A stretch of DNA of 61,466 nt, filler included, from Dugesia japonica (Eukaryota): NCBI GenBank assembly GCA_001938525.1. It is 6 parts of 6 records of this genome, joined end to end, with 100 filler letters (N's around TTAATTAATTAA, not from the genome) between each part and the next. Parts side by side here need not be neighbours in the genome. Positions count along the whole stretch, not along the records: positions 1 to 8,203 come from MQRL01580937.1; 5 more parts are not named here. One strand, given 5' to 3'. Shown piece after piece: positions 1,647 to 49,959 of this stretch. The notes beneath the pieces were generated by a model that saw only the letters and a list, made by a program, of their open reading frames with translations, had not been told where the DNA came from and searched no databases. Numbering within the stretch: position 1 is the stretch's first letter; each line of letters starts with the position of its first letter. Made by a program: the position numbers and the translations under genes.

Positions 1647-2095
1647 TATCCTTAAAAATTTAAATATTAAGTCATAGTATTGTTAGGGTGGAACACCCAG
1701 ATAATGAGAACCAAAACCACGGGGTCGTCAAACACGAAATAAGGAAAATTTGTCACCCCAATATCGTCAAAAGATAACAAAAAATGAAGAAAGTTGATAA
1801 ATATGAATAACATAACCAACCACCATCATAATTAATTAAGAAAATTATTAATTTAATATTGGTCAACGGAGAAAAAGCAATAAAGAAATTAATTAAGTAA
1901 CAGAAGAAAATTAATTAAATTGAAATAAAAAAGAAATGAAATTAGTCAAAAATCGGTTTTATCAGGATAACTTTGGCCCCTGAAGTCGGAATGAATCCGG
2001 ATAAGAATAAATGAGAAGGAGATATCCCGGTGCAATTAGAATGACAAAAAAGAAAAACCTACCATCGTCTAAAAGGTGGCTACAGGGTTCCCAAG

Positions 2096-2300
2096 ATTGG
2101 ACCAATGAAAAGTCTAAAAATAAAAATATAAAAACGAATTAAAACTCACATGATAGTCCAAAAATACCGGCCAACAGAATTGCAGGAAAGTCTGCAAAAT
2201 TCCAGAGAAGAGGTACCAATGCCAATGAAATCGTGCGATTTTGAACTAAAAATATCGGACCAATAATCAGCAAGTGAGGGTGTCTCGGAAACCCTATAAA
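2096..2300 (+). promoter_or_regulatory. U3-like promoter: CCAAT cluster plus TATA box
   Basis: CCAAT at 2102, 2216, 2222, 2260; ATTGG at 2096; TATAAA at 2295. Confidence 0.55.
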
Positions 2301-2929
2301 AAAGTACCCCAGTTTTAGCAAGAATAATCATTGTTTAAGAAAGATTTTACATCAACCAACTGCTAACTAGTTAATAAAGTGAATATCCAATCTCAACCTA
2401 CAAGTCAAAGGTATTTCATTGAAAATTATCAATTTTGTATTGAGTCTTTAAACCGATAGAATCTATAAAGGAACATCTCGTTATCAGAAAGAACCGACAA
2501 GTGGAACCAAGTAGATTAGCTCAGATTAAATTGGGAAATTGGGTCTACGAAGAAGTCATAGTAAACGTCCACACCGTTGTCACCCTGTTGCAGAAGATAC
2601 TAAATTTCAAATAAGTAAAATTTATTTTCTATGTTATGTATATTATGATAATGATGTTAAAATGTTACAATAAATGTATAAAAAAGAAATTGTTATCTTA
2701 TTAAAATAAAAATTAATTACAGAGTAAACGGGTTCTCTAGAAATAGCATATTACTGATAGTTAAAAGTAGACACGAATTGTTCTGTTTATTATTGATTGT
2801 CGGCCGAAATATCTTTTTGAACCATAATATTGGGAAAATAAAATGTAAAATAAAGCAGTAAGTCCATCCATAATGAATATTTATTAATCAAATAAAATGA
2901 AACCAACTCCGAATAAGTTATTTCACATT

Positions 2930-3770
2930 ACCTTCAATAATAATAAAAATCCGGGTTGCGGGAGTCAGATATCAAACTTTCCATCATGAGCAAGGATGCA
3001 TTTCAGAAAATTCCATCAGTATTAATTGCTACTGTAAGTTGTCGATAAATCTTTGCATTATGCCATGAGGCAAAATTCCGATAGAACTTGTATTTAGGCA
3101 CTCAGATAAAATATCATTTCCCAGTAGATGGTTGAATATTTTTCTTGCAACTGTATGAGGAGCCTCTTTTAGCAGTGATTGCATAAGGATCGATTTATTC
3201 CGTTGGAGTAACATAAATTATGAAATATCATCCATTACCGGTATTTTCAGGTATGACTCATCACACACGAATAAACTATGCCAAATTCCATGTTAACCGA
3301 TAATGACACACCTGCTTGTTTGAGCATTCCACTGTGCATGCAACAATCGAGAGTTGTGTAGTCTTCTCGTGAGACACACCTAACCTGATAAATTCGTTGG
3401 AGATAATTTGAGTTGTTGCCAGTAAGTCAAAATCACTACGATACGGGTATCGCAATAATTTAAATGACAGAAATTTCCAATATTTTACATCACTGTTGAA
3501 TTTTGTGAATATTGTTACCTTGCATATCCTTATGATCACCCTTATTTAATTTTATTGTTATTATTACGGTTATTATTATTATTAATATCATTATTATTAT
3601 TATTCGTATCACCCTTGTTAATAATCCTACTATCTGCATTGGTGTTATCAATTGAGGGATTTTGGATATCATTATTAAAATTAACATTATTNTATTGCTA
3701 AGGGGGTTGTCAATTTTTTNTCCTATATATATTTTGTAGTTTTAACCACATNATCCATGTCCGAACGGCT
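2930..3770 (-). pseudogene. Disrupted antisense cargo gene of element A (Asn-rich N-terminus, Cys-containing middle, helical C-terminus)
   Basis: Consecutive minus-strand ORF pieces 3276-3539 and 3029-3214 and an upstream poly-Asn stretch, broken by stops/frameshifts. Confidence 0.4.
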
Positions 3771-3833
3771 TCATTAAAATTAATACATTTAGTATTATCC
3801 GACAGGAATGATGATGAGTTTTATTTAAGGAAA

Positions 3834-4073
3834 CTAAATTATTAGTAAGGTTGGTAAATATCTTATCCTATATGCAGCTCCGGACCAGCGAATAGTGTCG
3901 GATTTTACGAGAAAACGCGCAGCAACGATAAGCTGTTCGTAATCAACAAATGATAGCCCACCGATTAACTTCAGGCCGGATGAAACAGATTTGTGCTGTT
4001 TCGCCGAAATGTTTCCTAAGAACATGCAATAAGATTTAGAGGCGGGATAGTTTTCTTATTTTTTTGTCGTCAT
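3834..4073 (-). pseudogene. Small antisense cargo ORF of element A
   Basis: MTTKK*ENYPASKSYC runs in frame into ORF 3834-4025; acceptor-like TTTTATTTCCAG ending at 4098; minus-strand AATAAA at 3820-3825. Confidence 0.4.
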
Positions 4074-4197
4074 GGTTAGCGATGCGCTGGTTTGTACCTG
4101 GAAATAAAATATTAAATTGCGTGCATTTAGTGTGGTTGTCTTTTATGTTCCAAATTGCTATAGTTAAGTTTGATTCATTCTATTTTTTATCTTAGAT

Positions 4198-4563
4198 ATG
4201 GAATCAGTTTGGATACGTGTCGTGGATAGAAGGACCCGACGGCTAATCCTATGGAGGTGTCACAACCCTCATCAACGTGATGCCGGGATTTTAGTCGATC
4301 GCTCGTATTTACCCCCGGTCGAGTCCATAGTGGGACGTATTAACGATTTTGGTGAAAGACAAAGATATCGGGTGTGGACTGGTCCCGATCGCACACATAC
4401 TACTTCTTTCACGTATCAACGGACCACTCCTCCACCCGCCCCTGCGATTCAGGCGTTCATAGCGAATCTTTCCTGGGGAGTCCGAGAACCAGATGGGGTC
4501 ACGGATGTGGAAAATACCGCCCCCGACCCCGATAATAATAACCCTCCATCATCCAATGTTTAG
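4198..4563 (+). CDS. Orphan 121-aa protein, cargo of element A
   Basis: Intact ATG ORF, clearly more GC-rich than flanks; TTTTTTATCTTAG ends at 4195; AATAAA at 4576. Confidence 0.6.
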   Translation: MESVWIRVVDRRTRRLILWRCHNPHQRDAGILVDRSYLPPVESIVGRINDFGERQRYRVWTGPDRTHTTSFTYQRTTPPPAPAIQAFIANLSWGVREPDGVTDVENTAPDPDNNNPPSSNV

Positions 4564-4789
4564 TGTTGATAGAATAATAAATAAGTATTCAATTCATGCT
4601 TTAATATAAATTTTCGAATGAATAAGAGTTCTAGTAGTCAAATATAATTAGATTTTAATTTTAATTTTTTTTGTGTAATGAGATGGGCCGTATAATTTCA
4701 TTTATTAACGTTGGAGTAAAATGATCAACTGATCTAATACTAGTTGTATTAAGTAAAAATTTATCTCATTAGGCCCTATTTGTATTTTA

Positions 4790-5149
4790 GTGCATTCGTC
4801 TTTAAATAGATTCCAGGCCCCTACTAAGAAAGTACGGGAAGATAAAGATAACCAAGAGATGACTTGGGACCTTTATAGGATGGCAAAAAGGCGATGGGAA
4901 GCGGAAATCGCCACAGCAGACGCTAAAGTAAAGCGATACAAACGTAAATGCCTAAATTTTAAGGCAGAGATGGAGGCCTCCCATAATCAAGAGCGGGTGT
5001 GGAAGTCTCAGGTCGAGACTCTTACCAACATGATCAAGNNNNNNNNNNNNNNNNNNNNNNNNNNNNNNNNNNNNNNNNNNAAGTTACGAGCCACGATGCC
5101 TCTACCACCCCTCTTGATTGATAAGGGCACTCAAACGAATCGGTCTTGA
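4790..5149 (+). CDS. Orphan basic coiled-coil protein, cargo of element A (spans an N gap)
   Basis: Open frame begins at TATTTTAG (AG 4789-4790); first ATG 4859; charged helical sequence; AATAAA at 5179. Confidence 0.5.
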   Translation: MHSSLNRFQAPTKKVREDKDNQEMTWDLYRMAKRRWEAEIATADAKVKRYKRKCLNFKAEMEASHNQERVWKSQVETLTNMIKXXXXXXXXXXXXXXKLRATMPLPPLLIDKGTQTNRS

Positions 5150-5366
5150 GTTACTCTAACTACATTTTAGTAGTTTTTAATAAATTAATTTTGTCCTACT
5201 TTGTCTAAGTCATTACGTTAATTCTAAATTTGATTTTTGCCAAATTGACTATACTTTTCATTCAGTGCCCCGAATTAACTTCCCCAACAGTATCCGGAGG
5301 TGCCATAGAATTATGCGCCACTTACTGGTCGAATGACATTTAAAACGTAAGACCGATAAGGCACTT

Positions 5367-5642
5367 ATGAGACATCTCAATCAGAGGGATCAACTTATAA
5401 AAAAATTAGATCTGATCGTAAGAAAACAAACGGATCGGGCAGCCCAAACCAAGGCCCTTGAGGCAGAGAATAGACAAATACTGTTGACAAAGATCGAATT
5501 TCTCAAACAGTATATCGCTGACCTCTCCCGACAGATAAACAGCCCCACAATATTACAATGGGATGATAACGACGATATAGCTGCGTTCAATTTCTCTGTG
5601 TCGATCCAGACCAATGGTTGGATCCAGGAGCGCTTGATTTAA
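5367..5642 (+). CDS. Orphan coiled-coil protein, cargo of element A
   Basis: 91-aa ATG ORF; in-frame ATG at 5313 separated by one TGA; TTTTCATTCAG ends at 5265; AATAAA at 5660. Confidence 0.5.
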   Translation: MRHLNQRDQLIKKLDLIVRKQTDRAAQTKALEAENRQILLTKIEFLKQYIADLSRQINSPTILQWDDNDDIAAFNFSVSIQTNGWIQERLI

Positions 5643-5891
5643 TTTAAATGTTTTTATATAATAAATATTTGTAATTTCTTGTCTTGGATAATACCAAAAA
5701 ATTAAAAAATATTGAACCCGAAGTATAGGTTTATCGGTGTGTACCTTCCATTAAGAGTAGGGTCAACTGCCATAAACTGAAAACCTACCCCAGAGACGGT
5801 AGGGTAAATTCTTGAAAGGGTTCCACTGAGGGCTGTTTTTTCCCCAGCCACTTTTTCTGGTTACTCGACTCAGGTGGGGCCCCAACAGTAT

Positions 5892-7195
5892 TGTTAGGGT
5901 TTCATCTAGGTGGATTAAATTTAATAATTAAGTCTAGGGTGACCTAGTAAAACCCCACGTAGAATTTAATCTGGCATCTCCAAAAATCTAGATCTTTGGA
6001 ATAGAGCCGTTGATATGGAATCCGAGTACAAACTCGCATTCCTTTGATTTGGGCTCAAACTTCACGATATTCACTTGATTTTCAAATTATTCTTGATTCC
6101 TATTAATTATTTTCCTAATAGTCTTTATTTTGTCGATTTAAACTTTATGAGTCGTTTAGCAGTCTTAACTATTTTATCAAGTTTAATCTGAATAAATTAT
6201 AAATTTTTCCAGTTTGGGGTTAAATTAATTTTCATAAAAACAAAAAATAAATTTTAACAGCAAAAAGTATATTAAAAATTCCAACTTTACTGGTGGTACA
6301 TTAACTTAACAATTAAAACAATCTATAGAACTAACGTGATCTAAATCCCGATACAGAGCAAGCATAATGTTGTGATATTCATTATTTCCATTGTTGATAG
6401 TGACCCGAGAGGTCCTCCATAATGTTCCATATTGGAATCAAGCCGGAAATTGCTTTACCTGAAATCAAATAGTTAAAGTAATAACCTTCTGTAATAATTG
6501 AAATTTTTTGTTAGACTTCAGTATTTTTTCTTGATAAAGATTTATTTTTTGGTGAAAATTACATCGGTATTTATACCTGTTTTTCTTCACACCTTCGTTT
6601 CTTTTATTGGTTTTTTGAAAATATACGATTTTTCTAATGCTTCTATTGGCTTGATCGTCACATGAGTCCTTCTTATTGGTTAATAGTTTTGAATTCCAAA
6701 ACTATTGGTCAATCTTCAAACCCTTGTATCTTCTTTCCTAATTTTGCTATGACTTTTTAACTTAGATTTTCGAAATTTCCGATTTCTCTTGACCATAATG
6801 ATTTTAATTGCTAATTTTTCCTTCACGGGTAGTTATCGATTTTGTCATATTTAACAAAATGTTTAATTTTGTTTAAAAATAAATCATTTTAATTCGTAAT
6901 ATTTATTTTATTTAAATAAATATATTATTCATTTTATTTTCTTTTTAATTAAAATTTTGATGTTCATTTTTTCGTTTTCCGATCTGAAATTAATTTAAGT
7001 TCGTCGTTTTTTCTTTCATTAATTAATTTAATCAATTCCGAAAAACTTCTGTCCCGGAATTCAAAGCTCTTGTTTAATAGATTCTTCGTCTTGTCCTCTT
7101 TATTGATTGCTCATAGTGCTCACTTTCTCCGATCAATTTCCAGCTCACTAATTGAACCTAAAAGACAATTATAATAACACTTAAATTCACATACA
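5892..7195 (-). mobile_element. Large LTR fragment (element B), reverse orientation
   Basis: Starts TGTTAGGGTTTCATCTAGGTGG, the near reverse complement of the end at 19407; colinear inverted similarity to 17800-19407; minus-strand TATA at 6570-6575 and several ATTGG. Confidence 0.75.
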
Positions 7196-7639
7196 CTCGG
7201 AGTTTGCATTCAATTGTACTGTATCAAAGTCAACAGAATAATTATACACTTCTAGAATTTAAAATGGCCACGGAAGAAATGCGAGTGGCCTTTTAAATTC
7301 AAGGGGAAGAAAGAAGGGACTTGCCTGTCTTAGTCCGTATTTTTACAAATACTCCTATAAACAACAGTAGAATTAGAAAATACGAGTTATTAAAAATATA
7401 TTCTGAAAATTTACATAAACAGTAAAAATTTATTAGGATCATGTAAATTTTAAAGTTTGATAAATTTGTAAAAAATCGCGCCTAAAAGTGTAGACATAAT
7501 TCCAAAATTTCTTATTTGAGCATTATTTTTAAATTTTGATGTCATTTAAATACTTTAAAGAAAATATAAATTAAGAATATTACATTGCATTAATATCAAT
7601 TATATTTAAAACCTTAAATATTTACTTTGCGGAAAGACA

Positions 7640-9650: not shown

Positions 9651-10316
9651 AAATAATAATAGCAATAATGATAATAAAAATATTTTCCAGTAGGATGGAT
9701 ATCAAGAATAATTAAAAATAAAATAACTATCAAATTAATTGTAATGATACTAATAGCCTCAATAATATTAGCAAAAAGACAGGTTAATAAAGCAAATTAA
9801 CAAATGATATTTCTACTATTATGGCTCGACATTAATAATTTGGGTAGATATTACTCATAATAACCACACGTAAGTTTAATACAACTGATTCTTATTAGTG
9901 ACTAGTCAGTAGCACATCATCAACGGTAGTGACTAAGAATAATTATAATCAACAAAATTGGATAGATTTAACAAGTAGTGCAATAGTTGGATGTCAGTTA
10001 CACTATCATAAGTTTAAGAGCTACAATGCTTAATATTGTAAGTTCTTTATTATTAAAAATTTTTGTATTTTTNNNNNNNNNNNNNNNNNNNNNNNNNNNN
10101 NNNNNNNNNTTTTAAGTAAAAGTTTTTACATGAAAATAATTATATGACAATTTTTAGATAAATTTTAGGTCAATTTTTAGATATAAATTTATAGAGAAGA
10201 AGAAATTATATATTTATTTACAAAATATTGGTTTTTTTGGGGTGTGTTTAACTAAAAATCATGGGAGTTTATATACCTTTTTTCTCTATCATTGGCCCAC
10301 TATTTTTGTTTTTCGG

Positions 10317-10340
10317 TTCTTACATTTTATTGGCGCCAAC
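10317..10340 (+). promoter_or_regulatory. Candidate LTR end and tRNA-Lys-type primer-binding site
   Basis: ...TCTTACA TTTTAT TGGCGCCAAC, one base short of TGGCGCCCAAC. Confidence 0.4.
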
Positions 10341-11404
10341 TCCAAAACTCTTACATTTTCGAAGATTTTTAGTTATTCTATTGTTGCCTATTTTTAGAGC
10401 ACCTGCTGACTTTCTTGTCTTTATTCTTATAACGTTTTTTGGTTTACCATTGGCCTAAACTTTAAAGCCTTTTTACCAATCTTTTGAAAGTGCTAACATC
10501 TTTGACGCCACAAAATCAAATTCCTCTTCACATAAGCTTCCTAATTTTTCTTGTCCCGAAGGTTTTGATCCATCCGTAGGAAAGTTATTCGCCTTTTTAC
10601 AATTTCTGACTGAATTATTTTTCTTTTTCTGGAAAAACTAATTAATTTTCATTCATTATTTTTAGTTGTATTTTTATAATATTTCGTTTATTTTGTTTAT
10701 GAATTATAATTCCTATAATTGGATTTGATTAATATTATTATTTTTGTCACTTCTTTATTCTTAATGTACTTCCTCTTATCTTCTTTTGATTATTTTTTAC
10801 AATTTATTATCTAGATAGAATATATTATTAAATAATACCCTTGTTTCATATTCTTTCTTCTTACATAGCTAAAGCTAAAAGTTCTTTTTTAATCGGGTGT
10901 TCCAACAATTGTAATAACAATTTAGTAAATCTAACCTGCATCTCATCAACTGTAACAACAACTGCATCACCTTTGTCTTCTCAAATAAATGACTTTAAAT
11001 ATTTCATTACATTAACTGCACTAGGAATAGCATTGAATTTAACGTTTTAATTGAATTGGTGGTGATAGCAACCTCGCAGAATGTAACTTCTCACTGAATT
11101 ACCTAAAAATATTTTTAGTTATGATTACCATAGTAACATCGTCTCATTGAATTGCATGGATTGTTTAAAGATGATTGGCTTCAATAGTGACAATCTCTCA
11201 GCGTATGACGTAGTTTTTGTTTACCAATGGTGATAGCAACACCATCTCTTTAAATTGGATAGAATATCTCGGTTTATTAATTGTGGTCATAATATCATCT
11301 CATACAATTGCACAATATAATTTCAGTTTATTAGCTGCGATAGGAATTACTTCTAATAAAATTGTACAAAATAATTTCGGTTTAGTAACTGTGAAAGAAA
11401 TATT

Positions 11405-11830: not shown

Positions 11831-12218
11831 TAAAATGCAATTAATAAGCTTCAAGGGCTTGGACGAGGACGTCGAATTTGAACAAACAAGGTTGGGTAAG
11901 GAATGAGGAATGTATTTCCAGGGCATATCTAAAATAACATACAAACTGAAACCAAAACAAAGGGGTACAAAGATAAATAATGAGGGTAAAATCATATGGT
12001 CGGAGATAAATAAACAAAAATCTTGTTACAGGTACAGAGCATTCAGCGGAGCAAGCACATTCAAATCGGAAATCGTTGCAACAAATAAGCACTATCCAGG
12101 TATAAAATTTTAATAATTATCATTATAGATGAACAACGATAACCAGTCATTGAACCAAAAGCNNNNNNNNNNNNNNNNNNNNNNNNNNNNNNNNNNNNNN
12201 NNNNNNNNNNNNTTATAG

Positions 12219-14150
12219 ATGAACAACGATAACCAGTCATTGAACCAAAAGCCTGTGGAGAATTACCAGGGTAAACCATTTGACGGAAACCTCGACTATG
12301 TAGACGAATTCCTATGGAGCTACGAACATCACGCAAATTTCTATGGTTATAGTGAAAAAGATAAAATCAAATTGGTAGCATTATACCTGAGAGAGAATGC
12401 TTTAAAAGTTTACCGACAACATAGTCAAGAAACTGATGAACCATTCAAGTCACGGAAGGAAGTAGACCTACTTCTTAGACAAAGTTTTGAAGAACAAAGA
12501 GACTTCCTACAAGCATCAAAGGAATTCTCACAATGTCAGCAGCAGGACGAAAGGTCATCTCAGAATTACATTATACTATTTAGACAACGATTGTTTAAAG
12601 TACCTTGGTCAAAGGAAACCTGCGATTAGTGTGTCGGAATCTACATTAAAGGAATCAAAAGTAAAGAAATACAACAAATAGTTACACTAAAAGAATCCAA
12701 AACAATTATGGAAGCCATTACAATACATCGAGAGGAAGAGAAAAAGATCCTAGGGCATAATTATGTATCCATGCGATGCAAGAAATATCGCAAAAAAGGA
12801 CATACGGTGAAAGAATGCTTATCAAAGAAGAAGAAATGTTGAAAGTGCTGGCGCAAGGGACACAAAATGGAAGAGTGTCCGAACCCAGCACTCATATGTC
12901 GCTATTGTCATAAAATGGGTCACCGATTATTAAATTGTCCCAAGAAAAGATGTCGAGGTAGTAGAAATAATATGGAAGAAAAAGCGGTACGTTGTTGGAA
13001 TGGAAAATGGCAAGTTTGAAAAATATTACCCAAGAATAATGAACCAGAAAGATTGTATATGCTACATGTTGAATCAGACAAGCCCCCCATAAATCAAGAA
13101 ATGAAGAAAGCAGCAAAAGTTCCGATCATGAAAGCAATGGAAGAATGAGCACTAAGAGAACAAGAAAATAAACTGATATGGGGATGGTATGAACAACTTG
13201 CAGGAAGAAAACAAGAAAAAAATGAAACCTTTGGCAAGATTAGCAGGCCTAACAAATGAACAAACGATAATAAAATGTTTCAGATCTGGCTTACGAGACC
13301 CATTGGTAAGAAGTCATGAAGCTTCAAGCAAACCCCCTGATTTGACTACCGCTATATTAAAAGCGGAAGCAATGAGTAAAATATTAGCAGAGCAACGAAT
13401 AATTTTAGGAAAGGAAACTGCCAGTCAAGAAACAAGGTGTAAACAAATTAACATGAAATTTAGATGTCAAAATTGCCGGAGAACGCATAATAATACTAAT
13501 CAATGTACAATCAAATGTACTTAGTGTAGCATCTGCGGTAGGAAAAATAACCTTATGGATAATTGTTAGCACGGATATTGTAGCAAATGCGGTAAGAAGG
13601 GGCACCCGGAAGAGAGATGTCTTCTCAAGAGAATCCAAACAGAAGAGGATCAAAGAGACGATAACGAAGGTAATGAAACTCATACCCAACAAATTGTGAA
13701 CAAAAGCAAAGAATCAACAAAATTGCATATGCTAAGAATCAAAATACCCGAAAGTCTAGGAATTAAGGAATTATTATCAAAGGCTCAGCGAGTACCAAAA
13801 TGTTACGATTGCAACAAACGAGGACACCAAGCTAAAGATTTTCAACCAAAAAATAAAGTGTTATATCTGTAAAAAAACTAGGTCATATTGCAAGATTATG
13901 TCGGCACAGAATATACATTGCAAAACCACGGAATGTAACTGAAGTCGGAAGAAATTTTGATTCCGAAAAAAATCATTCTTCAATGAAATATGATCAAGGG
14001 TATCGAATAGAAAAAGATAAAGAGGAGGAAAATATAAAGAACAAAGAGATCAAAGAAATTCTGTTCAATGAAAACTGTCAGTTACGAGAACAAATGAAAA
14101 ATAATCAGCAAAGAATTACTCGACTCAGAGAAGCCCTGCTAAACTAAAAC
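12219..14150 (+). pseudogene. gag: Ty3/Gypsy Gag with a second capsid-like block and three CCHC clusters
   Basis: KPFDGNLDYVDEFLWSYEHHANFYGYSEKDKIKLVALYLRENA; second block IIKCFRSGLRDPLVR...PPDLTTAILKAE; knuckles such as CRYCHKMGHRLLNC and CSKCGKKGHPEERC; scattered stops. Confidence 0.85.
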
Positions 14151-14289
14151 TCAAAGTAAGATAAAGCTCGCCGGAAGAAGTAATGCAAAATGAAAAGAAA
14201 ATCTCTCCAGACAAAAAATAAACACAGAAACCAACGTACAGGAACAAAATGAACAAATAGCAGTAATAGAAACACAGGATGGCGGATGT

Positions 14290-14619
14290 AGCCTTTCACT
14301 AATAATACGAATTAACAACCAACCAATGAAAACACTGTTAGATACTGCAGCATCTCAATCAGTATTAAACATAAAAAATATATCTCAAGGCAAGAGAAAA
14401 GAAATAAAACCCCATACAGCACGAGCAACAGGTGTTAACGGAAAAACAGTGCAGATTATTGGGACATTAGAGTGCAATACACAACTCAAAGGAAGAACAA
14501 TAAAACACTATTTCCTTGTAATGAAAACCAAAGTAGATGCAGTACTAGGAACAGATTTAGTGCCAAAACTGTTAGTGGGAACAAAGTTAGATTTTACTAC
14601 ATTTCAAATTGAAGTGTAA
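14290..14619 (+). pseudogene. Retropepsin-like aspartic protease
   Basis: TLLDTAASQSVL (DTGA variant), ATGVNGKTVQIIG flap, DAVLGTDL. Confidence 0.85.
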
Positions 14620-15299
14620 AAGCCAAGACCAGAAACGATAAGCATGTTGTAATTAAGCCGGAAAATGAAAGAAGTGAATCACGTAACTGCAAATCCGGAA
14701 AAAGACCAAAACATCTTGGATTATCAATGCCAAAATTGCTCAACTAAAGAAATTAGGAATATAAAAACCGGGGTGATAACCAAAGAAGGGAAGCAGAAAT
14801 TGATTGGATAAATAAAATCCAGGAGATCATCAAAGTGATAAGTGAAAATAAGCAATTAATTTCAACTAGAACAACCGAACTCATAGGAGCCCTCCATAAT
14901 TTTTAACCAAGGATAAATCAAGAAAATTAAGTGTTATTAGAAGAATTAGTTTACAACCAAGGTCCAAGATTATCCGGTCTAGATCAAGAATAATTATAAT
15001 AAACTTTTTCTGGCTGTACAATAAGAAAAAACTAATAATATCAGGAGACTACCGCTGGTGTGATATAGCGGAATTAATTAGAAATAACGGCCAAGAGTCA
15101 AGAGAATCAGCAGACGGAAAATCTACAGAATTATATTTTGGTGCTACACTTATTGACAGCGAGTCCATGGACCCAATGCAATTAGGGGGGACTCTGAAAA
15201 AATGCTGGAATCGATATTTTCGTTCAAAGTAAAGGAGACGGGCCAAACAATAGACATCTAAACCGATTAAAGATAAGCGTAAGAAAAAAAGGTCTCCGA

Positions 15300-17584
15300 G
15301 CAATAACATTATTTATCGAACAGATACTATCAAAATTGCAAGAACCAAAATTGGCAATGAATAAGAAAACAAAGTATGAAAGGAACATTAAAGAAGAAGA
15401 AATTTTGAATGTATCTAAAGATGTACTACGAATGGTAACTATGCAGCTACAATAATTAAACAAAATAACTCACAAGGTAAATCTAATGCCTGAAGAAGCA
15501 GAAGAGAAAACCGCGTTAGTAGCAAGGATACTAAAACTCATAGAACAAGATCGGCGGATCATTATCAGTATGCAAAAATGCAAAAAATGCGAAAAGAAAG
15601 GAAATATAAAAGAAAGATGTTGGGCAGATAAAATATGCCACTACTGTATCAAAAAAGGTCACATGGAAATATTGCATCAATAAATGCAAAAGGGCTAAGA
15701 AAGAAACAATACAAATTCGCCACAGTAAAGAAGAAGAACAAGAAAAGGCAGTGACCAACTCAATTAAAATCTGCATGCTACAGGTGGAAACTGTAGAATC
15801 AATAGAACCAGACGACTTCACAGAAGTAGTAACAAAAAAGAAAAAAGGAAGAAAGACAACTGGAGAAATGAAAACCAGAGTCACTCTAAATATACAGGAA
15901 GCTGGAATAAATCAAACATATAGCCCAGAACAAGAAAACTATATAACAAGGACGAACTCAAATCAAGAGTCGGTACTATCATCAAATAACGACAATACAA
16001 ATCAGATGGAAGTATTGTTATGGATATTAACGTTACAACTAAAGGAGTTGGAAGAGGTAACCAATGCAGTACAGAAAGTATCAGTAGAAGCAATAGTAGA
16101 AAATATCCTCAAGTCAAGGCTATCAAAATTCAGAGAAAAAGAAAAAAGGACTAAATTCGCAATGCAATTTTTGTTAAAAACATGGAATGAAACGTTAGAA
16201 GTAATAATGAAATTCGCAATACTTAAACAAAAAGAAAACTATAAATGTAGTGAATGTGGTAAGCTCGGTCATTTGGCAACCTGGTGCTGGAAAAATAGAC
16301 TATGGGAATATTGCGGGGAATCAGATAACCCAAAGAGACTTTGTTGGAAAAAACCATGCCAATTATGTGGCAAATTAGAACATACAGAGAAACAATGTAA
16401 AAAAGAATCGCATATCGAATCTATCTTTAGAGGAGAGGGTGGTATGAGATGTAGAAAAAGAGACCACACGATAGCTTCATGTGGGTTAAAATGAAAAAAA
16501 TTTGGCCGCAAAGGACATACTGAAATAGTATGCCAGCCAGACAAACAATGTACTAAGTGTAGAGGGAGAGGACATTTAGCAGAACATTGCAGTATTCCTA
16601 GAGGTTTCGACTGTGGTAAAACCAGACATAACATGAGAAGGTGTCGATTTAAAGCAAGCAATGAAGACTTTGCTATAATAATAGAAAGATCTAAAAAGTT
16701 GTATATGTTACAAGTAACCAATGGAGAAGAAAAAATGCAATTGCACGAAATCCTAAAAGGAAATAAACTAGTGACATATGAGGAACAAGATAATCACCAG
16801 GCAGTACCAGAAGACTGGCAGAAAATGCTTAATACATATGATGATCGGATATCTAGATTAAAGGAAGCTTTACGGTTTAGTCAAGTAAAATGCCGAATTT
16901 CAAACTCTTAGCAGACACTGCAATAGAAGAAAAAAGAAATGCACTGGTATTGTACGATATAGCTATGACCAACTTACAAAAGAGAGTAACATTCAGCCAG
17001 AAAAATTGGGAAGAATATCAAGCATTATTTAAACAAAAGAAAAGGACTGAGATAGCAAAACTTGGAGCTGTCTGTCAAGCTAGGAAATGGAAAACAAAAT
17101 ACGAGGAATTAAAAAGACAAGCCAAACAAATTGACCGATCGAGTAAATCAAATCTGGACGAGGACAAAAACCTGGTGGAAAAATACAAGGTACAGTTGTT
17201 AAAAGAAGAACCAGCCAAAAGGGAAGAAACGATACGGACGAAACTCTAATTGTTGGCGGAAGAACAAAGAGGGACTAATAAAATTTTTTTAAAAATGATT
17301 AAGGATAGAGAAACTTTCTACGAACAGCAACAAAGCTGAAAGGCCAGGGCAAATTGGAATCAACCAATGCAAACAACTGGCCATATTCAATAACCAAGGG
17401 GGAAAATAACGAGATTTCAAGTAATGTAGGCCTAATGAAACCCATGGCGATAATAATCCCAATAATGAAGAAACAATCTGCCAACGTTATGGAGCAATCA
17501 AACAATCCGATAGCAATTCATTCAGGAGAAGCCATTGGTCATCGCTATTCTTCGCTTTCAAGGATGACAGAAACTTTTGTCTGA
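15300..17584 (+). pseudogene. Post-protease polyprotein remnant with further CCHC clusters and coiled coil
   Basis: CKKCEKKGNIKERC, CSECGKLGHLATWC, CQLCGKLEHTEKQC, CTKCRGRGHLAEHC; purine-rich plus-strand bias; ORFs 15486, 15751, 16633, 16890, 17354. Confidence 0.7.
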
Positions 17585-17799
17585 TCTTTTTCCAAATAAA
17601 CTTGACTATATATTAACTATAAATATTGGTGTGTATTATTAAAACATGTTATAAACGTGGTATGTAGAATTAAAAGGTCATTGTACAGTTTGTGTCATAT
17701 CATGTTCTGAATTACAGTTAGTCTTAATCACTTTATATTATCTAATCTTGTGCTCGCTTTAAAAACTATTCGAACAATATAGTAGTTGATTTATGATTG

Positions 17800-19407
17800 T
17801 GTATGCTGATTTAAATGTTATTGTAATTACCTTTTAAGTCGTGTGAGCTGGAAATCGATCGGAGCAGGTAAGCACATGAGCAACCTTCCAGGAATAAATA
17901 CGAAGACTTAAGTCAACAAGAGTGTTAAATTCCGGGACGGAATTTTTTCGGAAGGGGAAGTATTTTGTTTGGGTGAAACACCTGAGAATAGAAAATAAAC
18001 CAGCGATAGGTAAACCTGGAATTCGAAAGAATGTCACATGAAAGAAACAAAGAACACAGACAAAAGAAGGAGTTAGGCCAGTTAAGGAAAGGAATAATTG
18101 AAGAAAAGACCGAAATTAATGAACTAAATATTGAAGATGATCCGTAACCTATTGAGTCACAAAGAGAGAAAAGAAATGTTGGAAGACACAAACAGACTAA
18201 CAAAAAATGGACAATTAATAACGGAAGAAAGTAATTCATTAACTAAAAAAGAAAGTCGAAGGAAATGAATAATCAACTTACAGAAAAAAAATTAAAAGAA
18301 TTAATTAGTAAAAGAAAACAGCGAAATTAAATTAAATTTAGATCTGAAAAACGAAAGAATGAACATCAAATTATTAATGAAGAAGAAAATAAAATAAATA
18401 ATTTATTTATTTAAATAAAATAAATCATACAAATTAAAATGATTTACTTTTAAAAGAAAATTAAATACGTTATAAAATATGGCAAAACGACAACTTTCCA
18501 TGGTGACAAAATTAGCAATTCTAAGAATTCTGGTCCAGAAAAACTCTGACATTTCACAAATTTAAGTTAAAAAGTCATAACAAGATTAGAAAAGACGATA
18601 CAGTGGTTTGAAGATTGACCAATAATTTTGGGAATCCTAAAATAACCACCAATAAAAAGAACTCGTGTGACGAACAAGCCAATAAAAACGTTAGAAAAAT
18701 CGTACGACTCCCAGTAACCAATGAAATAAACGAGGGTGTAGAAGAGAACCGGTATAAATACCGATGTGATATTTCATTAAAAACTACTCTTTTTCAATTA
18801 AAATTACTGAAGCCAATTTTTGCGGTAATTATTGTTTCATTTAATTCATGGTGTAACGATTTCCGACTTGAATATGGAAAATTATGGATGACTCTTAGAA
18901 TCGTTGATGGCTATCGAAGGCGAAACAATTCATGTGCTATGCTGCTCCGGATCGGGGTTTAGTTATGTTTGTTTTATAAGTTAGTTAAGTTTATGGACAA
19001 GTGACCGTAACAATTTATAACATATTTTTCACTTGTTAAATTCGTTTCTTTTTATTTTTATTGATTAAATAATCTATAGACTAGAAAAAAATTATGATAG
19101 ACTGCATTTAGGATAGATAATACACTAACATCTAATAAAAGACGCACAAAGTGAAAACGGATATAATAAGGACTACTTAGAAAATAAGTAGTAGGAATCA
19201 AGTATGATTTAAAAATCAAGCGTGTATTTTAAAGTATGAACCCAAAGCAAAGGAATGCGAGTCTGTACTCGGATTCCGAGTCAACGGCTCCATTCTGAAG
19301 ATCTGGTGTTTCGGGGACACCAGAATAAATTATTCGCAAGTTTTTACTAGGCCCACCACCCTTGACTTAATTACTAAAAATACAACCCACCTAGATGAAA
19401 CCCAACA
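17800..19407 (+). mobile_element. Large LTR (element C), same family as element B
   Basis: Ends CTAGATGAAACCCAACA; four CCAAT boxes at about 18619-18722 and TATAAA at 18753; left boundary uncertain. Confidence 0.75.
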
Positions 19408-39760: not shown

Positions 39761-40316
39761 ATTTCGCTCTAATTAAATGAAACTCTAGACATGCGCGCCC
39801 AATTCCTCAAAAAGGAAATATTCAAAATAATACATTAATTTAGATCAGCGCGCATCATAGTGTAGAGAAACTTATGCAGTATATTGTGTTGAGTGAAAAA
39901 TTAAAATAGTTGTTATTAGTAGGAAACGTCACTGAAATATAATTGCATCATGTTGGATCATTACTGGGATCTTTCAGAAAATCAATTTAAAACATTCAAT
40001 TAATTTATAAATATTAGTAAATAGATTGAAATTTATTATCAATGGTTTAGATTATTTTAAAAATTACTAATATTTATATTGAAGAACACATCTAACTGAT
40101 AAAAATATTTTAAAAATGATTTCAGTAATAAAAATAATAATATTATCATTATTATTATTGTTTTACAATTGCAATTATTGCGAGAATAATTGTTGGACAT
40201 AACCATTGATCGTTNNNNNNNNNNNNNNNNNNNNNNNNNNNNNNNNNNNNNNNNNNNNTTAATTAATTAANNNNNNNNNNNNNNNNNNNNNNNNNNNNNN
40301 NNNNNNNNNNNNNNAT

Positions 40317-40844
40317 ATTTGGAAATTTTACAAATTAGATGATGATCCGATTATATCAGAGACAAATTACGTTTTTAAATATCCATTTATGGATATATTT
40401 TTTAGAAATTCTCGTAATAATCATCAATATCAAGATAATTTTAATATCACGGCTGTTTTTTCTAAGGAAGCAATATATCCAATAATTAAAAGACCATTTC
40501 ATGGAATATGGATAAATACACCCTGCGATATTGAAAGAGTTCTGAATGAAATATTGCTTAAACCAAAAGAATGTGTGAGTTCGCATATGAGCCATATTAC
40601 AGTAAAAGGGATGAAATCAATTAAACGTATTAATTGTAATCTTATGAAAGATGTATATCCATTTGTTGAAAGAAAATATTACATTAAAAATTCAGAATAT
40701 TTAGTTGTAGAAAAACTGGTAAAGAATGGTTGGACAATTCAAACAGTTGAATATTCTGTTCCAAAGATTTGCAGCCAAGAATTGTATTATTCTTCCAAAC
40801 AAAAACTATACAGAAACTATTTCAATTTACTAAATTATATTTGA
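40317..40844 (+). CDS. Uncharacterised intronless ORF of at least 175 codons, possibly a Polinton accessory gene
   Basis: Frame is open from the gap edge (IWKFYKLDDDPIISETNYVFKYPF) through ORF 40389-40844; polB remnant nearby. Confidence 0.55.
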   Translation: MWKFYKLDDDPIISETNYVFKYPFMDIFFRNSRNNHQYQDNFNITAVFSKEAIYPIIKRPFHGIWINTPCDIERVLNEILLKPKECVSSHMSHITVKGMKSIKRINCNLMKDVYPFVERKYYIKNSEYLVVEKLVKNGWTIQTVEYSVPKICSQELYYSSKQKLYRNYFNLLNYI

Positions 40845-45759: not shown

Positions 45760-46585
45760 AAATACCCTCATAGGTCTTATATTACACAGTTGCTATGAAA
45801 ATAATATACTCATAAAACCTATATTACTTAGTTGATAAGTACATAATGCTATGATATTATACAAATATTACACTCATAAATCCTATATTCCATGATTACT
45901 GTGTACACATACCTTCATAAGCCTTATATTAAACGTTTTCTATGTAAATAATTCCTTCATAAGTATAATATTATACGGTTGTTATGTAAATAAAACAAGG
46001 TAACTATGACAATAATAGACTCATAAGTCTTATATTACACAGTTACTATGTAAATAAAACACTCAAACACCCTATAATATATGGTAACTATGTAAATATT
46101 AAAAGGTAACTATGCAAATAATACACTTATAATCCTTGAGTACATGGTTGCTATGTAAAAAATGCATACAAAAACCATTAAACAGTTGTTTTGTAAATAA
46201 TATATGCGTAAACCCTATAATAGACGGTTGCTATTTAAATAATACAAGGTAAATATGGAAATAATATACTCATAAACCTTATAATACTGGGTTACTATTT
46301 AAATAATACACACAAAAATCATATATTTAACGGTTGTTATGTAAATATTAAATGGTACCTAAGCAAATATTACACTATTAAACCTTATATTACATGGCTA
46401 ATATGTAAATAATATACTCATAAACTCTATATTACATTTTTACTATGCAAAAAGTACCTTCATAAGCCTTATATTACACGTTTGTTATGTAAATAATTCC
46501 TTCATAAGTTTTATATTTCATAAACCTTATATTTCATTGTTGGTATGTAAAAAATACAAGGTAGCTACGCAAATAATATACTCAT
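45760..46585. repeat. ~42-bp degenerate tandem array with ~21-bp half units; resumes at about 49347-49505
   Basis: Consensus-like AATAATATACTCATAAACCTTATATTACACGGTTACTATGTA. Confidence 0.9.
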
Positions 46586-49346
46586 TGTGAGGAAATGTAT
46601 GTTTCTTAAATGTTTTAAGTGTTTTTATTTTTTATGAATGTGTAATTGATGGAAGCTTTATTTGTTTATTGAGAAGTTTTAGAAACTCTTGTTTAAATAA
46701 TATTTGTGGCGGATTTTTAAATACGGAGTAAAATTGTAATTATTCTTTAGGAACTTTATTCACTTTTGGTATAAAGCAATACGCAAGGTTTAAATATTTT
46801 TTATTAATTACTAATTATATAAAGAATAGTATTTTGGTGTAATTATTTTCTAGATAAAACATTTGTCACATTTTAATATAATATTTTGCAATATTATTTA
46901 AATCTTGCAGATAGTATTTTTTCATTTATTTATTGTTGAACAATTGTTTTTAGAAATAAATGTTATCAACAGAAGAAAGTGTTTTTAATGTAGTGTATGT
47001 AGGCCCAACCCCTAATATGGTGGCAGCCGTCAATACGGACTCCATAGCGGACCGGTTGATGCCCGAAATATTTGGAAGGCATGATGATGTCGCAGAATCT
47101 ATAAGGAAATGCTACTTATACTTTGAAGTCAAGGAAATAACTAATAAGAGAGAGCAAGAAAGATTACTTACTTGCATGATAAAAGAAGATCTACTAGGAA
47201 AATATGTTAAAACTTTAGGAAAAGCAGATGGTTTCCAAGGGCGTTTGAGTAGAGCTTTTAGTAAAGAGAGAGAAAACAGCAAAACTCTTGGTATTGTGTG
47301 CAGGAAATAAAAAGGTTTAGGAAGACGTGGTACTGAGTAGAAGAGATAAAGTAGAAGAGATCAAAGAGACAATCAAACTATTAGATAAAGTAAAAGTCAA
47401 TGGGGATTCAGATAATGTTATGAGTTTTGCAAAAGTGGTTAAAGGTACTAGAGTAGTCAATCAATCTTTAGAAATAAGACGATCAGAAAATCGGAGGATA
47501 TAAAAAGAGACATCTAGAAAACCGAAATTATGGTAGCGAGCAACGGAATAGTAATATGGAGGGGCGGCCGACGTTGTAGGGGATGTAATAAAGAAGGTTA
47601 TTTAAGACGGGAATGTACTTTAAGTCCAAGGATAAGATATTGGACATGTGGACAAGAGGGTCATGTCAGCAGAAAATGTCCAGGTAGACACCAAGTTCAT
47701 TGTTTTCGATGTGGATTGAAAGGTCATATCAGTATGGAATGTCATGGAATAAATAACAGTTTTGGAAATTATAGAAAATATGATACGGATGGAAATTAAA
47801 AAGAGTATGTTAAGAAAGACGGGTAATGAAGAAGTACTAATCAGGTGAATAGAGGTAATAGATACAAACAATTGAATGCCCTAGAAGGGGGGTTGAGCCA
47901 ACAAGAAGAAGATGAAATAGAAAGTGTGGAAGTTAACGCTAGATTCCCAAAAGCACGGGCTCTAATAGTAGGGTAGTTAATCGTAGCTATATATTAAAAG
48001 GTAGTTCTATCAAATATCCTCGATTTATGTAAAGATGGGAGAACGCGAATGTGGTAGGACGGAGCTAATAGTTTTCATAGTAGGAAGTCGAGTACTGCCA
48101 AATATGATTGGAAGAATGAAAATTTTAAATTTTGATTATGCCAAAATGACGAAGAACGAAAAAAAAAGAAAGGAAAATTTATATCTGTAATTTGGAGGCC
48201 AATTTTGGCAGACATGTTAATAAAAACGAACGCTGGCAGAGAGCAAGTGCTAGTATAGAATAGGAAGGTGATAATCATTTAAAGGAGATTTGCAAAATGA
48301 GAGGAGAGGTGTTCATAGCGGATAAATGGGATGTTGGCAGGACTCATTTAATCAAACATAATATAGTTACAAAAGGTGGACCTATTAATGTAAAACCATA
48401 TAGACAGCTGATCAATCTCGAAGATATGATAGATGATGCAATTAAAAATCTGTTAGAGAATGACATTATTCGAAATTATAATTCACCATGGAACACACTT
48501 TTGGTATGTGTGTGGAAGAAGGAGAAAAAAGACATAAGATTATGTCTGGATTTTAGAAGATGGAACGAGATCACAGAAAGACAAGCTTTCCGAATATTGA
48601 GGAAATGTTGGACAAATTGAGTGAGACAACATATTTCAGTTTGATTGATCTGGGCAATGCGTATTACCACGTGGAATTGGACAAAAACTCTCAAGAGAAG
48701 ACGATATTCTCCACAAAGCAGGGACAGTAAAATTTTAAACAGATGCCATTTGTAATAGCGGCAGCTCCTGGAACTTTTCAGGAGATGATGGTTGAAGTAA
48801 TAAGAGGAATACGAGGAGCAATGGTATACTTGGGTGACATATTGGTGTTTTTGAAGTCGAGGGAGGAACATTATGAGATTACAGAAAATGTTTTAGACAG
48901 AATCTTGGAAGCAGTTCTGAGAATAAATCCAAAAAATGCTCTTTTATGAAACGGGAAAATTTTTAGGACACATAATAAGTGAGAGAGGAATTCAAACAGA
49001 TCCATTAAAAGTAGAAGCAATAAAATCTTTTGGAGAGCCAAAATGTGTGAAGAAACTACGTAATTTTTTGGCATATGCAACTACTACTGGAAGTTTATAA
49101 AAGATTATGCCATGAAGGCTAGAAAACTGGAATAATTATGCAGTGGTCAGGGCAACGCAAAATTTGTTTTGTCTGCAGAGTTGTCGGAGATTTTCGAAGG
49201 ATTGAAAACAGCACTAACCATAACACTAATGCTGGGGTTCCCAGATTTACGGAGAGAATTCATCTTGGACATGGACGCAAGCTTTAGCATGGTTGGCGCA
49301 GTGTTGGCACAAAAAGACGAATATGTGAAAGAAAGAGTGATTGCGT
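46586..49346 (+). mobile_element. 3'-truncated Ty3/Gypsy element: 5' LTR (46586-46870), gag, RT, start of RNase H
   Basis: TGTGA...TCACA LTR; gag 46960; knuckles such as CFRCGLKGHISMEC; RLCLDFRRWN, IDLGNAYYHV, MPF, YLGDILVF, FILDMDAS...GAVLAQ. Confidence 0.9.
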
Positions 49347-49959
49347 AAACCCTATAATACTGGGTTACTAGGAATTAATACAATCATAATCCTTATAATA
49401 GATGGTTGCAATGTAAATAATACACTCACAAATCTTATATTTTATGGTTGTTTTGTAAATAATACCAGGTAACTATGCAATTAATATACTCATAAACTAT
49501 ATTATTCAGGATTTTAAATAGATTTTTTATTAAAACTTGCATTGGTAAGGATATTTTTTATAGAAAATTACCACTAGTAATGTTTTTAAAAAAAGTTCTG
49601 TTTTTTATCTTTTTGTAATGAAAAGTTTTAATTTGAATATTTATTCATGTAATTATCCCAAAGACTCGCCTCTTTAAAGTTTTTTGAGAGGTAAATTTTA
49701 TCATGCAAATATCAAAAAGACTTCCCTCTTTGGTTAGTTTTACTAGTTATATTTTTATAATGTAAATATCACAGACTCCTATTTGAAGTTTTTTGATAGA
49801 TATATATTCATAAATGCAAAACAGAAGGAATACAGTTGCAACACACATACACTGAAAATCACAAGTATGAGAATTTTTAAAACTCAACAAAGCCGCCATT
49901 TTGAATTTTTTAATAAACACAATAAATATGTAACTCAGATGCAACACAGATATACTGAA

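Follow-up and report, generated by a model that had tools for sequence, protein, structure and literature searches.

A putative solo LTR of Gypsy type in Dugesia japonica with a predicted two-strand cassette of alternative last exons

The present analysis concerns a 4.2-kb element within a 61,466-nucleotide stretch of Dugesia japonica DNA (hereafter the window; assembly GCA_001938525.1), which is very probably a solo long terminal repeat (LTR). From our point of view, the balance tips slightly towards a solo LTR of Gypsy type whose transcribed part forms a cassette of alternative last exons, such that one promoter and one short first exon would serve several short reading frames, for each of which an acceptor and a poly(A) signal are predicted (Table 1). 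The element belongs to a multi-copy repeat family in which the frames within 3753-6200 are better kept than the spacers, and coding constraint on the cassette frames within that family is highly likely.

Every frame lies 3' of the TATA box at 2295, in a region where spacers of 13-27% GC separate GC-richer blocks (37-51%). The acceptors of the plus-strand frames A, B and C are three of the top four among 231 plus-strand AGs by a simple ad hoc score, all three having been picked in the preliminary description of this DNA partly for acceptor quality. An AATAAA follows their stops after 12, 29 and 17 nt, respectively, against a chance of about 10% per stop in the flanking AT-rich DNA, and three frames of at least 95 codons within 4100-5710 appeared in 12 of 1000 block shuffles. 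A fourth plus-strand frame near the promoter (frame L), which had been overlooked, has a weaker acceptor ending at 2459, separated by a predicted intron of 49 nt from the donor at 2410/2411. All four sense acceptors are in phase 1 (that of L assigned by hand; 1 in 27 by chance), which fits one common first exon spliced to alternative last exons, and on this pattern we consider splicing from a shared first exon rather probable; the antisense acceptors ending at 4098 and 3385 are both in phase 0.

The three plus-strand frames proposed initially keep their acceptors and AATAAA distances, but frame B has no ATG at 4790 (its first ATG lies at 4859, the frame being open from the acceptor), and position 5367, given as the start of frame C, is merely the next ATG after an in-frame stop at 5334, although the acceptor ending at 5265 is in frame. 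Likewise, the minus-strand frame said to diverge from about 4100 (frame D) has the acceptor and AATAAA ascribed to it but is interrupted by a stop at its sixth codon (4058-4056), and high depth in other copies is confined to its 5' part, whereas the second, disrupted minus-strand gene (frame E) was recovered as described. Among 20 plus-strand donor candidates in 2320-4195, a single one (3251, within the antisense frame E) is combined with an ATG in an open phase-1 frame. Within frame L, a 21-nt stretch (2594-2614) lies between a CAG and a donor-like site at 2615; of the three phases, phase 1 alone is open, and the stretch could represent an optional micro-exon en route to the downstream exons. 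No antisense promoter was identified for frames D and E. Spliced-leader trans-splicing is described for flatworms (PMC9851317) and could, in a flatworm host, provide the two antisense acceptors, both in phase 0, with an AUG.

Table 1. Coordinates of the element and of its predicted parts (positions in the window)
Feature	Position	Strand	Details and basis
Element	1681-5887		4.2 kb; TGTT...AACA termini; sequence
Left target-site duplication GTAT	1677-1680	.	sequence
Right target-site duplication GTAT	5888-5891	.	sequence
U3-like region	1681-2327	+	TGTTAGGG end; CCAAT 2102/2216/2222/2260; TATA 2295; likeness to three LTR-like stretches in the window
Predicted shared first exon	2328-2410	+	donor AAG|GT at 2410/2411; 9 open phase-1 codons; inferred from sequence
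Frame L, candidate last exon 1	2460-2614	+	52 codons from acceptor, no Met; AATAAA 2669
Frame E, broken antisense gene	2934-3384	-	stops and frame changes; weak acceptor ending 3385, phase 0; AATAAA 2885
Frame D, antisense exon	3834-4097	-	acceptor ending 4098, phase 0; ATG 4073; AATAAA 9 nt past final stop
Frame A	4196-4563	+	121 amino acids from ATG 4198; phase-1 acceptor ending 4195; AATAAA 4576
Frame B	4791-5149	+	phase-1 acceptor ending 4790; AATAAA 5179; coiled-coil-like by eye; C-terminal DKGTQT
Frame C	5266-5642	+	phase-1 acceptor ending 5265; coiled-coil-like; AATAAA 5660
U5-like terminal module	5711-5887	+	terminates in CCCAACA; common to a far larger repeat family; summed contig depth

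For the comparison with related copies, 4 of 24 listed runs were mapped onto 3753-6200 at 85% likeness, namely X1 and X6 (DNA-type) and X21 and X24 (raw poly(A) runs, of each of which about one quarter was used). Part of the stretch is contained in 19 of the 24 runs, no RNA run being listed among these holders, and runs guessed to be RNA that hold 5-10% of its words were excluded. X1 may be the source of the assembly, in which case it is no independent evidence on this copy, although the family is visible in it all the same. The contigs aligned numbered 4,650 (X1) and 4,113 (X6), with 3,549 and 3,168 of them less than 95% alike, while contig pieces with zero differences had a depth of 4-8. The median summed depth, which is not a copy number, was 3,824 (X1) and 2,216 (X6) in the 17 mostly coding bins compared to 203 and 244 in the 6 spacer bins (24 bins in total, 1 mixed bin excluded), so that the frames are about 10-20 times deeper (P = 0.0006 for X1, with bins that are not independent). 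Frame A reached 1750-2090 in X1 against 98-281 in its flanking spacers, and in frame D high depth was limited to about 3917-4080. The listed contig pieces over the frames, although up to 15% divergent, are mostly gap-free, and single contigs span from B to the acceptor of C (depth 103) and from A to its own poly(A) signal. Among the best 40 of 284 rows of differences to this copy, ranked by support, frames A to C hold 12 near-fixed differences, 11 of which are non-synonymous and none of which falls on a third position (P = 0.008). We read this as private decay of this copy at positions that the family would hold constant; such a pattern would be expected of a family that varies at third positions and is constrained elsewhere. 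The expectation that the frames are conserved among copies is hence supported both by the depth peaks and by this pattern.

Given these data, it is very improbable that the frames arose by chance in non-coding LTR sequence of higher GC content, even if no homologue was obtained in any library searched, the single-sequence fold of frame A is poor and spliced RNA was not found: as many long frames are produced by few shuffles, acceptor, phase and AATAAA coincide, and both depth and the third-position pattern follow the frames. It is also quite unlikely, albeit less so, that an ordinary short LTR captured, as cargo, fragments from other genes or elements with many copies, whose conservation would reflect copies elsewhere and not a role in this LTR. 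The order B-spacer-C is kept in other contigs, the stretch from C to the terminus is deep, and a uniform phase and layout would be improbable for independent captures. What speaks for such a capture is that depth varies among the frames, that the terminal 160 bp are 20-100 times deeper than the frames, and that in the related LTR-like repeat that ends at 19407 no more than about 650 bp follow the TATA, with no similarity to the leader or terminus of the element.

The assignment as a solo LTR is based on the junctions GTAT|TGTTAGGG at 1677-1688 and CCCAACA|GTAT at 5881-5891, i.e. on the TG...CA ends and GTAT duplication that had already been noticed, with a chance of about 1% for any 4-mer match in the flanks. 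A self-comparison revealed no direct terminal repeat inside the element, a Pfam scan no gag-pol, and inspection by eye no sequence resembling a primer-binding site or polypurine tract at its flanks. Together with the multi-copy family, the ends, the 4-bp duplication and the lack of an internal repeat support the solo-LTR anatomy proposed before, which would have arisen by LTR-LTR recombination. Alternatively, the stretch could be no LTR but an entire non-autonomous element, either Ginger/MITE-like with its TGT ends or of the TRIM/LARD kind, that an integrase mobilised in trans; a link to gag-pol was not shown, and TGT ends next to a 4-bp duplication would suit integrase-type DNA transposons as well. 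We regard this as improbable, since Ginger/MITE-type transposons have terminal inverted repeats of tens of bp whereas the inverted match of the element comprises 7 of the first 8 letters, since TRIM/LARD-like elements are opposed by the missing direct terminal repeats, and since there is a weak likeness between its 5' part and further LTR-like promoters of the window.

Regarding these promoters, the CCAAT/TATA arrangement mentioned in the preliminary description could be located (Table 1), with the TATAAA about 615 bp from the left end. The first 740 bp of the element align to 10110-10907, 6450-7250 and 18050-18850 with scores of 151, 109 and 111, which were reached by 0, 0 and 2 of 100 shuffles; the likeness is weak and the sequence AT-rich, and the scores of four control regions were reached by 11-66 of 100 shuffles. 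The stretch at 18050-18850 sits downstream of gag and protease remnants. The post-TATA parts of the three stretches are unlike the leader and terminus of the element (3-99 of 100 shuffles reach the score). The stretch at 10110-10907 (minus strand) is a diverged relative of the 5' end of the element, which begins with TGTTGGAACACCC, is 59% alike over 527 bp and has its TATA about 635 bp in; a matching far end or duplication was not found for it.

How such a cassette would operate can be imagined as follows. The post-promoter region of a Gypsy-type LTR would have grown to about 3.6 kb and come to hold several short frames; transcription would begin at about 2330, the shared first exon would be spliced to a chosen last exon with its poly(A) site, and intact copies would supply the start codon in the first exon. 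The frames would most likely represent small accessory proteins serving the parent element. As promoter, exons and poly(A) signals are all situated inside the LTR, an intact solo copy should be able to make the products without gag-pol.

Several observations weigh against the cassette reading. Frames C, D and E are broken in this copy (near 5600, C also differs in length from most contigs, and E has several breaks), frame B holds a 42-N assembly gap (5039-5080), and the predicted first exon of this copy contains no ATG in any frame; this copy probably no longer makes cassette products. With regard to depth, the coding bin 3835-3916 (3' half of D) is shallow (118 and 124 in X1 and X6), the spacer bin 5639-5720 before the terminus is deep (2,042 and 2,536), AT-rich spacers may be under-represented in mapping, sums of depth do not translate into copies, and the third-position count draws on the best-supported rows. 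The much deeper terminus implies that most relatives with this end lack the cassette at 85% identity, and a paired LTR copy with gag-pol was not shown. Finally, neither RNA reads at least 95% alike nor a splice joint were found in X21 and X24 over 3753-6200, so that the junction reads expected at the predicted acceptors were absent in both RNA runs.

The RNA reads that did align (116 in X21 and 18 in X24) mostly fall on a 40-nt terminal core at 5805-5845. Frames B, C and D receive a few reads that stem from diverged relatives, their strand being not reliably readable, and 7 reads of a diverged relative run gap-free upstream of the first ATG of B, with 17 of 30 letters alike and mismatches at codon positions 1/2/3 of 5/2/6 (both by eye). 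This suggests that a relative of the element is transcribed, and the gap-free reads with codon-like mismatches 5' of the ATG make it likely that the coding part of B starts at the acceptor. LTR elements are described as being held down by SMEDWI-2 in planarians and as released from repression on smedwi-2 RNAi (PMC8532177), and such repression could explain the RNA silence in a planarian host.

Retroviral accessory genes in the 3' LTR are spliced from a donor inside the element. By the same principle, the frames might be real but active only in a full-length element via an internal coding donor, solo copies being silent relics. We consider this unlikely but worth keeping in mind, as no ATG is present here in the first exon that the LTR itself provides, frames B and L require an upstream start, near-identical RNA reads and joints are absent from X21 and X24, and the breaks are private to this copy. 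However, the frames lie 3' of the LTR's own TATA, a short predicted intron links the first exon to L in the same phase as A to C, and an ATG of frame A itself sits 2 nt past the acceptor. For the cassette of alternative last exons, the earlier proposal that the LTR spreads accessory proteins therefore has to be divided: layout and shared phase favour the cassette itself, whereas independent spread from solo LTRs is not borne out, this copy being broken, its first exon having no ATG, and junction and near-identical reads being missing from X21 and X24. Present-day protein output from solo copies is doubtful. The furthest-reaching version is similarly doubtful, namely that a whole accessory-gene programme (one promoter and a short exon, four last exons, two antisense genes) moved into the transcribed LTR part, and that intact solo LTRs would be self-contained, outlive the loss of gag-pol and supply small host-interacting proteins in trans, including one possible LC8 binder.

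When 8 frames of the element were compared to Pfam, no family scored below E 0.007, while the neighbouring pol, gag and protease remnants matched in the same scan, in line with the earlier statement that no transposition enzyme is present. No homologue was found for frame A (Pfam and homologue search), for frame E (Pfam, PDB and, for a part of E with X at the stop, the homologue search), or for frame B (Pfam, PDB and, by short patterns only, large collections); frame C from 5337 had no match in a scan of 1.84 billion proteins, and PDB sequences yielded no homologue of B, E or D (best E 0.38), D and L not having been run against the large protein collections. An AlphaFold model of frame A from the single sequence (predicted local distance difference test, pLDDT, 41; best Foldseek E 2.2) was uninformative. 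Matches of B in the metagenome and viral scans, at one locus each (18 and 23 residues), were dismissed as chance, and impressions by eye of E as CARD- or F-box-like and of D as winged-helix-like found no support in the Pfam search.

Frame C has weak coiled-coil-type Pfam matches, and the coiled-coil-like frame B terminates in an LC8-anchor-like DKGTQT. A TQT anchor marks partners of the dynein light chain LC8 and adjacent coiled coils aid binding, but many TQT peptides do not bind LC8 (PMC6607443). If B did bind LC8 via this anchor, B might be dimerised or retroelement particles tied to host transport. Contigs departing from this copy near the tail of B (3 in X1, 1 in X6) do so at 5139, just past DKGTQT, which is only suggestive. 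An IQT near the C end was not counted as a second LC8 site, as most contigs differ in length just before it.

The terminus of the element is common to a much larger repeat family than the cassette. Summed depth amounts to 137,000-216,000 over 5721-5884 and to 4,000-5,400 in the next bin, and in both X1 and X6 an approximately 50-fold fall of contig depth just past 5884 marks the right end. The terminal motif had 0 matches in the viral and metagenome collections scanned. The 40-nt core mentioned above is common to expressed diverged relatives and sits at the start of a predicted terminal stem; the terminal sequence folds no better than its shuffled versions (z -0.08 and 0.88), and a hammerhead-like reading was dropped by eye. 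Rfam gave 4 weak matches, all far under the gathering score. In each DNA-type run, one low-depth contig links 5927 back to 5638 with 11 letters between, possibly a local duplication or an assembly difference at the right end.

The window is AT-rich with ATT microsatellites, which appears planarian-like. The left flank of the element is a decayed minus-strand Gypsy pol (Pfam matches to rve and an integrase zinc finger). On the right, a second LTR-like end, previously overlooked, begins at 5892, directly after the right GTAT, which thus adjoins both; this abutment suggests that one target site was used repeatedly. The stretches 5892-7196 and 17799-19407 form an inverted pair, 73-75% alike, and represent another LTR-like family, which has a CCAAT/TATA of its own; within this pair, 18299-19407, a 73% inverted copy of the right-flank end, lies downstream of the gag and protease remnants. 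These belong to 12100-17400, where a decayed gag with many zinc knuckles, an aspartyl protease, more knuckles and a coiled-coil frame precede the LTR-like repeat; a reverse transcriptase frame was not seen there, and the region may represent a giant element that is either non-autonomous or has suffered a deletion. At 47000-49350 and 45760-46590, inspection by eye pointed to a decayed Gypsy gag-pol, flanked by an AT-rich tandem-like repeat recurring at 49346-49513. A 190-codon frame at 40263-40844 had no Pfam or homologue match (searched as the exon 40320-40841); by eye we take it to resemble the end of a LicD/fukutin-type host gene.

Solo LTRs are usually regarded as promoter or enhancer relics. 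If the cassette were expressed, LTR-LTR recombination, the host's usual route to delete element genes, would spare and multiply several of them. Moreover, some 3.5 kb of R-U5 would have to be reverse-transcribed ahead of the first strand transfer, and the full-length RNA would run past several poly(A) signals within the 5' LTR; both points bear on the limits of LTR size. The orphan proteins might mediate new interactions between element and host; Burro1, for instance, is reported to aid planarian regeneration via a captured anti-apoptotic domain (as cited in PMC13465017).

LTR-encoded genes, multi-kb LTRs and antisense extra open reading frames (ORFs) are already known. A multi-exon two-strand cassette 3' of an LTR promoter was not found in the literature searched; the primary Burro papers, which were not covered, may describe such LTR transcripts. 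The Burro elements, giant Gypsy-like LTR retrotransposons of planarians (PMC6431247, PMC13465017), share with the present element the Gypsy-type setting, large repeats and accessory coding capacity. Compared by description only, and as far as the excerpts of these sources go, their extras (BIR, BCL2-like, MATH, env-like) are placed in the polyprotein or an upstream accessory ORF and not in the LTR, whereas the frames described here are inside it. The LTRs of plant Ogre elements measure 1.9-6.5 kb (PMC6431247), and Retand elements possess extra ORFs, some of them antisense (PMC11963269). Multi-kb LTRs and extra ORFs of uncharacterised role, partly antisense, are thus common to these and our element, but the Ogre/Retand ORFs would be lost on solo-LTR formation because they are located in the internal region.

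A further comparison concerns sag of mouse mammary tumour virus (MMTV), an LTR-encoded gene under purifying selection in a virus for which solo LTRs arising by recombination are known as well (PMC11998498), so that an accessory gene within the LTR and solo LTRs are shared features. Accessory genes inside the LTR are also represented by nef of human immunodeficiency virus (HIV) and bel of foamy viruses. MMTV sag is a single ORF in U3, upstream of the LTR promoter, and HIV nef is likewise in U3. In contrast to sag and nef, the present element has up to four sense and two antisense frames 3' of its TATA, each with a predicted acceptor and poly(A) signal.

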